This document shows positions 4,911-6,955 of a stretch of DNA of 40,002 bases, in pieces; position 1 is the first letter of the stretch, and every line of letters begins with the position of its first letter. Both the position numbers and the translations under genes were made by a program. The notes beneath the pieces are model-generated. The model searched no databases and was not told where the DNA came from. It saw nothing but the letters and a program-made list of their open reading frames with translations. The stretch lies in the IMG/VR virus record IMGVR_UViG_3300045988_166899. The stretch is one strand, 5' to 3'. The DNA is from a virus.

Positions 4911-4952
4911 ACCAATAGGTAAAATTATAGTCAACATAATTTACCTATTGGT
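4911..4952. promoter_or_regulatory. operator: perfect 13-bp inverted repeat ACCAATAGGTAAA-N16-TTTACCTATTGGT, with TATAAT (-10, minus strand, 4924-4929) and CCAGCTGG palindrome at 4970-4977
   Basis: Read directly; sits in the 90-bp cI/cro divergent intergenic region. Confidence 0.6.
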
Positions 4953-4989
4953 GGTAGCAATTCTTTTTTCCAGCTGGTAAAAAATTTTT

Positions 4990-5724
4990 ATGGATATTTA
5001 CGCTGAATTTTTGGCCTTACTGGATAAGGCCATCGAAAAATGTGGAAACGCCAAAAAACTAGCTGAGGCTCTTGACGTTCACCCGAATCTTATCACTCGC
5101 TGGAAAAAAGGTGAGCGTGTACCTACTATTACATCAATACAACCTCTTTTAGATTTTCTTGGTGTAGGGTTTTCCGATCCAACCGTTACCCAAAGTAAAG
5201 AGGTCTGCTTTGTTGACGCGCGTATAGCCCCGGCTGGGGACACGCTCCCCCCTCCCCCGGATGAAGACTACCTCGCCGTTCCCCTTGTGGAAGAAGTTGG
5301 CGCGGGGCCCGGCATCATTCCGCAAAATGAACTCATCTCGTGGTTCCTCGTCTGGCGTCACCAGCGGGCCATTCAACACAAGCGCGATCTGATCGCCGTC
5401 ATGCTCGGAAAGCATTCAACTTCGATGGTTCCCACGCTCAAGCCGCAGGATATTGTGCTGGTGGATAGGCAGGATAAGGATGTGATGAACTTTAAGGGAA
5501 GAATCATGCTTGTCCTCGATCCCGCCGACGGCAGCGGAAAGATCAAGCGCGTGGCAGCGGAAAACCAGCCGAAAAAGCGCGACTATCGCATCACCTACTA
5601 TTCGGACAACGCCGCCGAGAATCCCCCCGAGGTCTACAGCTTAATGGAAGACTTCGAGGGGGACTGGAACAAGTCCATCGTCGGTCGGGTTGTATGGGCG
5701 TGGAGTGACGTGAGCTGCAAATGA
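4990..5724 (+). CDS. cI: CI-like repressor, N-terminal HTH + C-terminal S24 (LexA-like) peptidase domain
   Basis: 244 aa; HTH KKLAEALDVHPNLITRWKKGERVP; S24 motif GKHSTSMVPTLKPQDIVLV (GxSMxPT) and downstream Lys (KIKRV). Confidence 0.85.
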   Translation: MDIYAEFLALLDKAIEKCGNAKKLAEALDVHPNLITRWKKGERVPTITSIQPLLDFLGVGFSDPTVTQSKEVCFVDARIAPAGDTLPPPPDEDYLAVPLVEEVGAGPGIIPQNELISWFLVWRHQRAIQHKRDLIAVMLGKHSTSMVPTLKPQDIVLVDRQDKDVMNFKGRIMLVLDPADGSGKIKRVAAENQPKKRDYRITYYSDNAAENPPEVYSLMEDFEGDWNKSIVGRVVWAWSDVSCK

Positions 5725-5728
5725 AAAT

Positions 5729-5755
5729 CCCCGCCGGAGCGGGGAGTGATTTTTT
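5729..5755 (+). terminator. intrinsic terminator after cI (CCCCGC-cgga-GCGGGG then T5)
   Basis: hairpin plus T-run 6 nt downstream. Confidence 0.45.
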
Positions 5756-5830
5756 GGGGTAACATGAAAAGATAACATATTTAGTCAGTTAAAGCTATCG
5801 TGTCTAAAGCTGGATGAAGACACTTTTTGC

Positions 5831-5858
5831 TTGACATAGGTACAACTTGACTTATCAT
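5831..5858 (+). promoter_or_regulatory. sigma70-like promoter TTGACA-16-TATCAT upstream of moron gene
   Basis: read directly; second TTGACT at 5847. Confidence 0.4.
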
Positions 5859-5991
5859 GTTTTTGCGGTTGGTAGGGCTGTGCACGGCACGGTTCGTTAA
5901 GTTCTACTTAGCTGGCTGCATAACTGGTTGGGAGGGCCGCAGGTGCGGTTCGTTGAAGTTATGCTTCACCTGGCCTCAGTATTTTTTAAAA

Positions 5992-6017
5992 GCCCATCAT
6001 CCCAATGGGCTTTTTTT
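5992..6017 (+). terminator. hairpin GCCCAT-catccca-ATGGGC + T7 immediately upstream of DUF3800 RBS (attenuator-like)
   Basis: read directly; no promoter between it and the ATG at 6034. Confidence 0.5.
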
Positions 6018-6033
6018 ATTACCGAGGATACTA

Positions 6034-6795
6034 ATGTATTTAATGTACTTGGATGATTCAGGCTCTCCAGCGAATAAAAATGAACGTCATTTTGTGCTTG
6101 CTGGCATCATTATGCATGAATCCAAATTAAATTGGATTAATAGGGGTATGCATGACATAGCTAAGCAAATAGACTTTTCACAAGCACAACTTATAGAGTT
6201 TCATGCATCAGAAATGTATGCTCGCCGAAAAGGTGTTTGGAAAGATTTTACCAAAGATAAATCTGTAGAAACTATAAAATCCGTGCTACGGATTATTCCG
6301 AATGAGACACGAGAAAATAAACTTTGTGTTGTCGGATGTATTGTAGATAAAAATGCTTATACCAATATGGATCCTGTTGAACTAGCTTTTGAAAACCTAT
6401 GCAGTCGTTTTGACATATTCTTATCAAAAAGATTTCATGAAACTAAAATAAGGGAATCTGGACTTATTATATTCGATAAGACATCAAGTGAAACATCCCT
6501 ACAGCGATTAGCATTAGATTTTAGAAGCGTTGGAACCCGTTGGAACGTCACCAAATACTTACATGAGGTTCCTCTTTTTGTTGATTCTAGAGCTTCTCGT
6601 GGCATTCAATTAGCAGATCATGTTGCTTACGCTTTATTTCGAAGATACGAGCATGGTGACATAAATTATTTTAATATAATACAGGGATGTTTTGACTCAG
6701 ACAATGAGCGCATACATGGACTTGTTCATAAAACGTATGAACAAGACTGTACTTGTCCTGGATGTTTGGCAAAAAAAATGTCTTCGACATCTTAA
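6034..6795 (+). CDS. DUF3800-like protein (AT-rich moron)
   Basis: N-terminus MYLMYLDDSGSPANKNERHFVLAGI matches DUF3800 start; GAGGA SD 5 nt upstream of ATG 6034; GC drops sharply vs flanks; ORF-track start 5857 judged an artefactual extension. Confidence 0.6.
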   Translation: MYLMYLDDSGSPANKNERHFVLAGIIMHESKLNWINRGMHDIAKQIDFSQAQLIEFHASEMYARRKGVWKDFTKDKSVETIKSVLRIIPNETRENKLCVVGCIVDKNAYTNMDPVELAFENLCSRFDIFLSKRFHETKIRESGLIIFDKTSSETSLQRLALDFRSVGTRWNVTKYLHEVPLFVDSRASRGIQLADHVAYALFRRYEHGDINYFNIIQGCFDSDNERIHGLVHKTYEQDCTCPGCLAKKMSSTS

Positions 6796-6815
6796 ACATC
6801 CCCTCCCATCTCCCC

Positions 6816-6840
6816 GCCCCTCCTCGTGAGGGGCTTTTTT
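6816..6840 (+). terminator. intrinsic terminator GCCCCTC-ctcgt-GAGGGGC + T6
   Basis: read directly after DUF3800 stop. Confidence 0.7.
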
Positions 6841-6903
6841 GTGCCCTATGGGACGTGACCGCCGATGCCTTCATGGTGTCGGCGGTATTTTTATACCTCA
6901 TAT

Positions 6904-6955
6904 TTTACCTATTGGGAATTTTATTCTTGACCTATTTTTTACCAGTTGGTATTGT
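6904..6955 (+). promoter_or_regulatory. second operator half-site TTTACCTATTGG (6904-6915) followed by promoter TTGACC-17-TATTGT whose spacer contains near-palindrome ACCAGTTGGTA
   Basis: 12/12 identity to right arm of cI/cro operator; promoter hexamers read directly. Confidence 0.5.

Follow-up and report, generated by a model that had tools for sequence, protein, structure and literature searches.

A mirror-image, lambda-type immunity region with two operator sets, proposed for a phage of gut sulfate-reducing bacteria

The virus record IMGVR_UViG_3300045988_166899 of IMG/VR comprises 40,002 nucleotides (nt), and this whole stretch of DNA is called the window here. The present analysis concerns a cI-like repressor gene together with its putative operators and early promoters, for which positions 4911-6955 had been singled out. 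Very probably they form a lambda-type immunity region in mirror image, in which one DNA-binding specificity would act on five operators at two early promoters. The decisive support for this interpretation is that in heteroimmune relatives the sites at both regions change in concert. The host group of this phage is gut sulfate-reducing bacteria, with relatives in Bilophila, Mailhella and Desulfovibrio-type genomes. The design itself is the ordinary textbook arrangement of lambda with its left and right operators (OL and OR) and contains no new principle. A search of the literature found no description of this system, a blastn comparison of 3900-7500 with 50,697 phage records returned no match, and to our knowledge there is no regulatory map of this kind for this host group.

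The starting point was a 12-mer (TTTACCTATTGG) of the spacer between the cI- and cro-like genes, for which a preliminary description had reported a further copy at 6904-6915. Every sequence quoted there was found again in its place, including TACCAGTTGGTA at 6940-6951 and CCAGCTGG at 4970-4977. The window contains exactly three copies of the 12-mer (4912-4923 on the minus strand, 4940-4951 and 6904-6915), whereas the expectation from 100 dinucleotide-preserving shuffles is 0.00. Since no shuffle contained a single copy, the recurrence within 40 kb is not due to chance. The 12-mer had been taken for a half-site. It represents instead most of a complete operator of 16 base pairs (bp), because the similarity continues beyond it to 16 of 17 identities (CATAATTTACCTATTGG compared with CATATTTTACCTATTGG). 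Judged by their sequences, there are five complete pseudo-palindromic operators of 16 bp, three of the OR and two of the OL type:

4908-4923, read on the minus strand: operator A (OR1-like), AATACCAATAGGTAAA, within the spacer and -10 element of the promoter resembling the rightward promoter (PR) of lambda
4940-4955: operator B (OR2-like), TTTACCTATTGGTGGT, 32 bp from A and abutting the weak -35 element proposed for the cI promoter
4966-4981, read on the minus strand: operator C (OR3-like), TTTTCCAGCTGGTAAA, with the highest symmetry of the five, situated 8 nt ahead of the cI ATG at a distance of 26 bp from B
6904-6919: operator D (distal OL site), TTTACCTATTGGGAAT
6938-6953: operator E (proximal OL site), TTTACCAGTTGGTATT, within the spacer and -10 element of the promoter resembling the leftward promoter (PL) of lambda, 34 bp from D

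All three sites of the OR set are situated within the 90-bp spacer between the cro-like and the cI-like gene. Sites D and E follow about 1.9 kb downstream in the same (direct) orientation. Centre-to-centre distances are 32 bp (A-B), 26 bp (B-C) and 34 bp (D-E). Aligned with the strong half on the left (A and C on the minus strand), the sites read TTTTACC TATT GGTATTT (A), ATTTACC TATT GGTGGTA (B), TTTTACC AGCT GGAAAAA (C), TTTTACC TATT GGGAATT (D) and TTTTACC AGTT GGTATTG (E). The second half appears weaker and GGTAAA-like, and site C comes close to a perfect palindrome of 18 bp.

The core TTTTACC-N4-GG occurs five times in the window, compared with 0.22 expected occurrences, and none of 100 shuffles reached this number. 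Its matches are sites A, C, D and E and one position in the late genes, while site B deviates by one mismatch. A further comparison used an OL patch defined by position alone, namely the 72 nt before the conserved leader, and counted the 16-mer pairs that agree in 13 positions or more. The OR region and this patch share 32 such pairs; in 2000 shuffles of the patch the mean was 0.19 and the maximum 8. One could still ascribe the recurrence of the 12-mer to chance or to A+T-rich composition, with no shared function. Looser patterns would agree with that: the motif TTTACCNNNNGGTAAA with up to three mismatches was found 15 times in the window against 10.3 expected, which is not significant alone, the palindrome TACCNNNNGGTA with up to one mismatch was not enriched overall in the window, and one looser motif scan gave 10 matches against 6.05. 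Only the asymmetric core was specific among the patterns scanned, and even this core has one additional match that looks fortuitous. Nevertheless the three exact 12-mers, the absence of any patch shuffle (0 of 2000) reaching the OR/OL count and the parallel changes that the motif undergoes at the two regions in heteroimmune relatives effectively refute the explanation by chance, to which we assign hardly any probability.

The whole-window scan for further sites, which had been proposed earlier, added C and E to the family and yielded elsewhere only the match at 30944-30956. The latter (TTTTACCCAAAGG, minus strand) is located inside the late genes, where it adjoins AAAGGAGAAA, which resembles a ribosome-binding site, and it was treated as probably fortuitous. 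A nearly identical word precedes a gene for 134 amino acids (aa) in the PL operons of two related phage loci, L001 (12208) and L008 (11010).

Sites A and B together contain a perfect 13-bp inverted repeat (ACCAATAGGTAAA at 4911-4923 and TTTACCTATTGGT at 4940-4952, 100% complementary, 16 nt between the arms). The repeat is as perfect as first described, but it consists of two operators in inverted orientation and not of one. The opposite interpretation, with A and B as half-sites of a single 42-bp operator (13-bp arms, N16) and the 6904 copy as a lone half-site, can appeal to this perfect complementarity but is highly improbable. Each site has its own internal dyad of the type TTTACC-N4-GGTAAA, C stands alone as a near-perfect palindrome, and D and E are arranged in direct and not in inverted orientation. 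Moreover the operators of heteroimmune relatives are compact palindromes of 10-16 bp, for example TAGCGAATTTGCTA, TACGAAAATATTCGTA, TAGACAATTGTCTA and ATTACCTTTTGGTAAT. Similarly, the near-palindrome reported in the spacer of the downstream promoter is present and resembles site C, but it is actually a further copy of the same operator (site E). Both CCAGCTGG (site C) and ACCAGTTGGTA (site E) are operators of the same family.

The five sites are arranged around three putative promoters, the third of them resembling the lambda promoter for repressor maintenance (PRM):

4907-4935, minus strand: PR-like promoter, -35 element TTGACT (4935-4930), 17-nt spacer, -10 element TATTTA (4912-4907)
6927-6955, plus strand: PL-like promoter, TTGACC (6927-6932), 17-nt spacer, TATTGT (6950-6955), with TG at the extended -10 position
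4955-4983, plus strand: proposed PRM-like promoter, TAGCAA, 17-nt spacer, TAAAAA

On the minus strand the PR-like sequence TTGACT-ATAATTTTACCTATTGG-TATTTA is followed by GTTCTC and the cro ATG, and on the plus strand the PL-like sequence TTGACC-TATTTTTTACCAGTTGG-TATTGT is followed by AGCTTCACG. From the -35 through the -10 element both share 20 of 29 positions, with the hexamers, the 17-nt spacer and an operator in the same register. By sequence, the PL-like and PR-like promoters are paralogues on opposite strands. Each of the two is accompanied by another operator located 32-34 bp further upstream, namely B at the PR-like and D at the PL-like promoter. The 6904 site had been described as lying directly after a terminator and overlapping a promoter on the cI strand; this is borne out, since two tandem terminators precede it and the promoter is of the sigma-70 type with 9 of 12 hexamer matches. 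Activity of both early promoters is predicted on these grounds.

The paralogy offers another explanation of the shared words, namely that only a promoter was duplicated and that they are elements for RNA polymerase instead of operators. The alignment of both promoters over -35, spacer and -10 fits this, as does the similarity of the -35 sequence TTGACCTATT to TTTACCTATT. Yet B, C and D are situated outside the promoter cores and show the same motif, palindromic sites of 14-16 bp are typical of dimeric helix-turn-helix (HTH) proteins and not of sigma-70, and relatives retain TTGAC- and TA---T-like hexamers while both palindromes change together with the HTH domains. Duplication of promoter elements alone is therefore a very improbable account. 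The resemblance at the -35 position deserves a remark, because the PL hexamer with the next four bases (TTGACCTATT, 6927-6936) shares 9 of 10 positions with TTTACCTATT, the operator's strong half together with the centre. Shared ancestry alone may account for this, or else the sequence may be the vestige of a third OL half-site; it is at most a half-site. No third OL operator was found in the window or in any related locus examined, each having two OL sites only.

A Shine-Dalgarno sequence is lacking before both the cro-like (4899) and the cI-like gene (4990), and a -10-like hexamer is found 6-8 nt ahead of each. These two features together suggest that both mRNAs are leaderless. The PR-like promoter is predicted to initiate at the A of the cro ATG (4899) or close to it, and the PRM-like promoter would do so at the A of the cI ATG (4990). 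In the geometry of the latter, C covers a weak promoter and B abuts its -35 element, which in sequence terms would resemble the position of OR2 and OR3 at lambda PRM.

Conservation of this arrangement was followed in eight loci with the identical repressor (L001-L008) and in four viral contigs with the same DNA-binding domain, which were found via the OL pattern and kept if they extended far enough upstream. The exact 244-aa repressor is present in 891 assembly blocks of public assemblies, mostly gut metagenomes. All five operators are kept in 12 of 12 homo-immune loci that span both regions, while the cargo genes between them vary and the distance from A to D ranges from 1962 to 2480 bp in the four viral contigs. 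Over 73 nt the OL operator-promoter patch of L003, L004 and L006 is identical to the window (73/73), compared with 61-69 of 69-70 positions in the terminators and 123-128 of 147-149 in the leaders. Because the patch shows zero changes despite about 16% flank divergence in L003, it appears to be constrained; such identity in an unconstrained sequence is very unlikely (about 3e-6 by our own estimate). The central four bases of the operators do vary among otherwise identical phages, with AATA or AGTA in site A of the homo-immune loci (the flanks being fixed) and AGTT or AATT in site E of L038 and L042, while TTTTACC and GG are invariant. This is as expected if the centre is not contacted.

Even more informative are relatives with a different specificity. 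The homologues P0008 and P0009 (loci L009 and L010/L011) have a C-terminal domain that is almost identical to that of the window repressor, with 92-93% identity of the corresponding DNA in L009 and L010, whereas their N-terminal domain is unrelated. In these loci the similarity to the window breaks at two places only. The first is the block 4729-5208 (about 480 bp), which spans the N-terminus of Cro, OR and the N-terminal domain of cI. The second is the OL patch (6887-6958, about 70 bp), where 51/76 positions agree with the window in L009 and 47/76 in L010. The flanks are much better conserved (63-66 of 69 positions in the terminators, 121-138 of 147-149 in the leaders). Within both patches new palindromes are found, TAC-N4-GTA in L009 and TAGC-N6-GCTA in L010, again with three copies at OR and two at OL, and the proximal OL copy is placed in the spacer and -10 element of a TTGAC-type promoter. 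A further locus (L013) has two copies of a TTACCAA/TTGGTAA-type motif at each region. When the OR regions and OL patches of these loci and the window were compared in all combinations, the diagonal of the matrix held 32, 10, 16 and 6 pairs and the off-diagonal fields 0, with the exception of 3 pairs between the window OR and the patch of L013, which have related motifs. Thus both operator sets change in concert with the DNA-binding domains of repressor and Cro, as far as sequences can tell. The earlier suggestion of a dual operator of OR/OL type that is read by the repressor gains considerable support from this co-variation. Two non-contiguous patches amid nearly identical flanks imply either concerted exchange or repeated homogenisation of the flanks.

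A scan of contigs extended the comparison to 22 loci in Bilophila, Mailhella, Nitratidesulfovibrio, Desulfovibrio and other genomes. In five loci that represent about five distant specificity groups (L024, L025, L032, L033 and L035; 39-52% cI identity, one of them in a Geobacteraceae genome) the palindrome of OR is found again at a distance of 0.3-3.9 kb downstream from the repressor gene. At these places the order on the repressor strand is the same, with an intrinsic terminator, the distal operator, a TTGAC-type -35 element and the proximal operator in spacer and -10. The cro-side promoter is readable in L024, L032, L033 and L035 and follows the same design, with the -10 element six to eight nt before the cro ATG; a design like that of the window is also seen in L010 and L013. 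The leaderless-type arrangement on the cro side recurs in L010, L024, L032 and L035. The OL pair is spaced by 33 bp in L024, L032 and L033; with the window, L009 and L010 added, which makes six measured groups, the range is 32-34 bp. Word tests of OR against 4.5 kb of downstream DNA are noisy, since chance alone gives 12-13 of 14 identities, and they supported the model in about a third of the loci. In an unbiased 18 x 18 matrix over this distance, six loci had a diagonal value strictly above all 34 cross-comparisons. Two observations of a different kind were made on the way. In L021 (6866-6946) a GC-rich stretch of about 80 nt that precedes the repressor gene recurs immediately after it (18 word matches), and the OR region of L034 matches DNA downstream of cI in L036 (16 word matches).

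Several points weigh against the proposed immunity region or narrow it. The case for the operators is made throughout by sequence and comparison. The crude word test revealed no clear OR/OL match in L018, L020, L026, L029, L030, L034 and L036, so that the design can be claimed for part of the family. Two OL sites face three in lambda. Promoter-like matches are not enriched in the region (5 against 3.6 expected), and the PL-like promoter with its 9/12 is a moderate match. In the repressor the Peptidase_S24 domain scores 16.1 bits, which is below the cut-off of 23.3. The leader behind the PL-like promoter contains no convincing or conserved open reading frame (ORF) for an N-like protein over its 517 nt, and because a terminator (7399-7425) precedes the first gene, control of the operon by this promoter needs read-through. 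Finally, the DNA-binding domains of Cro and cI always swap together, and hence the comparison is silent on which protein reads the sites.

The genes concerned by the last point are the following:

4990-5724, plus strand: cI-like repressor gene (244 aa), encoding an N-terminal HTH domain and, after a disordered linker, a C-terminal domain that is rich in beta structure and like those of LexA and lambda cI
4654-4899, minus strand: cro-like gene (81-aa HTH protein), match to phrog_35 (transcriptional repressor) with 5.8e-5
3953-4450, minus strand: cII-like gene, second in the cro-side (PR-like) operon, matches to PF06892 (Phage_CP76) with 3.7e-12 and to phrog_101 (CII-like activator) with 1.1e-13

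The N-terminus of the cI-like protein was fixed by alignment of homologues. The protein matches HTH_3 with 26.7 bits (cut-off 23) and phrog_4 with 2.8e-14, as well as PHROG 6201, the label in PHROGs being repressor, and many of its homologues carry PF00717. The predicted structure (predicted local distance difference test, pLDDT, 81) led Foldseek to LexA (3k2z, 3.7e-6) and to the lambda repressor entries 7jvt, 2ho0 and 8gmu, among them a cleavage-site fragment and a RecA complex. A sequence search of the PDB with the repressor gave generic HTH proteins only and no solved cI, and a search of NCBIfam nothing useful. Residues A105-G106, S145 and K186 are invariant among 17 cI homologues. On the strength of model and matches, the product is a cI-like lysogenic repressor that combines an HTH domain with a putative LexA-like cleavage domain.

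For lambda, 434 and P22 it is known that operators are shared by repressor and Cro. Very probably the Cro-like protein of the window likewise shares operator specificity with the cI-like repressor. It might be argued that the Cro-like protein alone reads the sites and that the lysogenic repressor acts elsewhere or otherwise. Indeed the N-terminal 57 codons or so of the cro-like gene belong to the immunity-specific block (compared with L009), i.e. the Cro HTH is part of the same 480-bp block 4729-5208 as the cI N-terminal domain, so the co-variation fits either protein. This possibility is nonetheless very unlikely, as HTH and LexA-like cleavage domain give the cI-like protein the complete architecture of a lysogenic repressor and as sites over PR, the presumed PRM and PL match a shared use by both proteins.

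If the five sites are operators of both proteins, the switch could work as follows. In the lysogen, repressor dimers bound at A and B and at D and E would shut both early promoters, while sites B and C would tune the repressor's own promoter, the core of which is covered by C. The terminators would keep transcripts of cI and of the cargo out of the early operon. Autocleavage at Ala105-Gly106 by Ser145 and Lys186, as in a putative SOS response, would lift the repression, and later the Cro-like protein would bind the same sites and occlude both early promoters. The D-E spacing of 34 bp corresponds to about three helical turns, and the constancy of 32-34 bp is the only hint of possible cooperativity or looping.

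Transcription from the PL-like promoter would first pass a long leader:

6956-7472, plus strand: untranslated, purine-rich and C-poor PL leader of 517 nt
7399-7425, plus strand: intrinsic terminator (hairpin 7399-7423 and U-tract), some 50 nt ahead of the first gene (ATG 7474)
7474-16092, plus strand: operon of the early-left type, with orf95, orf85, RecE-like exonuclease, RecT, HU-like, Tad2-like and other genes, and the integrase last

The first 75 nt or so form a long interrupted hairpin from nucleotide 2 onwards, to which about 450 nt of purine-rich sequence are joined; the whole leader folds with a z-score of -4.26, and its first 150 nt or so are preserved among heteroimmune loci. In six further specificity groups (L013, L024, L033, L032, L022 and L025) the leader likewise begins with a hairpin of comparable shape, with weak individual z-scores. 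Covariation could not be exploited, as close loci vary too little and distant loci were misaligned by MAFFT. Rfam at a relaxed threshold yielded nothing in 6800-7500 but a chance match of 15.9 bits. Small basic ORFs (26 aa from GTG 7108, 44 aa from TTG 7137) were considered as N and dismissed, since they are not conserved between loci. In L009 ARAGORN reports a tRNA-like gene of undetermined anticodon at 7196-7284, inside the PL leader where that of the window diverges.

The promoter at 6927-6955 had been proposed to drive an exo/recT/int operon. It does point at the RecE-like exonuclease, RecT and integrase genes, but the terminator at 7399-7425 intervenes. The operators at 6904-6953 could be real and the promoter could still yield a mere non-coding RNA of about 470 nt, with exo, recT and int transcribed from elsewhere. 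The leader, ORF-free, structured, closed by a good intrinsic terminator and conserved in its first 150 nt, would suit such an RNA. We consider this unlikely, although it is not far-fetched, for three reasons. No promoter-like site is present between the terminator and ATG 7474, the leader of L011 is only about 180 nt long and leads, with no terminator on the way, to a gene that has a Shine-Dalgarno sequence, and in lambda terminators of the PL operon are overcome by antitermination. In phage HK022 the put sites downstream of PL and PR act in cis as RNA antiterminators, with no N protein. The window resembles them in having a structured RNA directly after the PL-like start, no N-like ORF and terminators to be passed. 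It remains a resemblance only: there is no match in sequence or in Rfam and no counterpart on the PR side, where the fold of the cro-cII spacer does not surpass that of shuffled sequences (z = -0.11). The leader might act as an antiterminator of the put type or stabilise the 5' end. Because there is no N-like protein and the ORF-free leader ends in a terminator, a role in read-through or gating comes into consideration. The joint proposal that this leader is a new cis-acting RNA for put-like read-through or for gating of the operon, and that specificity resides on two concertedly exchanged patches, is a tentative one and in our estimate rather doubtful.

The DNA between cI and OL is a slot for exchangeable cargo. 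In the window it comprises the following elements:

5728-5745, plus strand: terminator after cI, left edge of the slot
5831-6795, plus strand: DUF3800 cargo (moron) unit, about 35% GC compared with about 58% around it
5831-5858, plus strand: near-consensus cargo promoter, TTGACA-16-TATCAT
5866-5918 and 5925-5976, plus strand: tandem DUF3800-VI RNAs (37 and 55.7 bits; Rfam gathering score 35)
5988-6014, plus strand: cargo terminator
6034-6795, plus strand: DUF3800 protein gene (PF12686, 9.5e-19)
6816-6834 and 6858-6886, plus strand: tandem intrinsic terminators, right edge of the slot

From the cI terminator to the first of the conserved terminators the DNA is unrelated among loci, and conservation resumes exactly at the terminators. 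These fold with z = -6.14, are kept in all related loci whatever the cargo and would insulate the PL-like promoter from transcription of cI and cargo. Loci with the identical repressor contain four different cargoes, i.e. DUF3800, a pair similar to PDC-M63A/B (4.4e-11 and 7.1e-6, a PADLOC candidate), an SDH-type serine protease/NfeD gene beside a 66-aa gene, and a 160-aa gene on the reverse strand. The slot extends over 5746-6815 in the window, 6976-7553 in L003, 6827-8373 in L004 and 6770-7851 in L006, and in the heteroimmune relatives over 5744-6867 (L009) and 5786-6543 (L010). On this comparative evidence the slot, bounded by the cI terminator and the conserved pair of terminators, is a hot-spot for cargo, and the initial comparison of the moron with rex of lambda was apt. 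As the DUF3800 cargo has no operator sites, the lysogen presumably expresses it. It is without a match in PADLOC. RNA motifs directly upstream of DUF3800 genes were described by Weinberg et al. 2017 (PMC5737381), and the two tandem DUF3800-VI matches of the window, directly 5' of the DUF3800 gene, conform to this. They are part of the cargo and not of the operator system.

The resemblance to lambda covers most elements of the architecture. Divergent cI and cro genes surround a three-site operator, a cII-like gene follows cro, and a second operator set is placed on a second early promoter beyond cI on the cI strand. The position of rexAB between cI and OL is taken by cargo that has expression signals of its own, and the PL operon contains recombination functions and the integrase. 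The operators have one strong and one weaker half, and the repressor is predicted to consist of an HTH and a LexA-like self-cleaving domain. In lambda the distance between OL and OR is 2.4 kb, compared with about 1.9 kb in the window. Differences concern the repressor, which is only a remote fold relative (13-16% identical), the operators with 16 bp and a free N4 centre instead of 17 bp, and the spacing of neighbouring sites (32-34 bp, B-C 26 bp, versus 23-24 bp). Neither an N gene nor a recognisable nut site is found, the untranslated leader with its terminal terminator standing in their place, and two strong terminators directly precede OL. Furthermore both the cro and the cI mRNA appear leaderless here, in lambda only the PRM transcript.

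Like the heteroimmune lambdoid series (lambda, 434, 21, P22, HK022), the present phages combine shared flanks with differing specificities of repressor, Cro and operators, OL and OR being matched, and the recombination joint is inside the repressor gene between the DNA-binding and the C-terminal domain. The immunity regions of imm434 and imm21 are each one contiguous block. Here two separate patches (about 480 and 70 bp) are exchanged, with nearly identical sequence and exchangeable cargo between them.

These findings provide a testable regulatory map with five putative operators, three promoters and insulating terminators, and they indicate that a distant host lineage shares the solution of lambda, one repressor with two operator sets. 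On a common promoter scaffold, at least six more matched pairs of repressor and operator are possible orthogonal switches for the genetics of Desulfovibrionaceae. Among the cargoes, one resembles a candidate defence system and another is a DUF3800 gene with an RNA motif of unknown function.

The remaining gene order of the window is consistent with this picture:

8554-9384, plus strand: RecE-like exonuclease (DUF3799 / exonuclease VIII-like)
9354-10295, plus strand: RecT
10343-10636, plus strand: HU-like protein
11121-11558, plus strand: protein with a Tad2-like (Thoeris anti-defence 2) domain (PF11195, 4.1e-26)
15034-16092, plus strand: integrase
21093-21830, plus strand: Rha/Ant-like regulator
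26829-27797, minus strand: ejection protein
29069-30532, minus strand: virion structural protein
34956-37028, minus strand: portal
37022-38281, minus strand: large terminase

Beyond the integrase (16500-40002) the ejection, structural, portal and terminase genes are encoded on the minus strand. Since cI and cro, the early operon and the integrase are followed by late genes on the opposite strand, the window displays the lambda map as a mirror image, and by this gene order it is in the vegetative arrangement rather than a prophage end after the integrase. The Tad2-like gene is present in L008, too.

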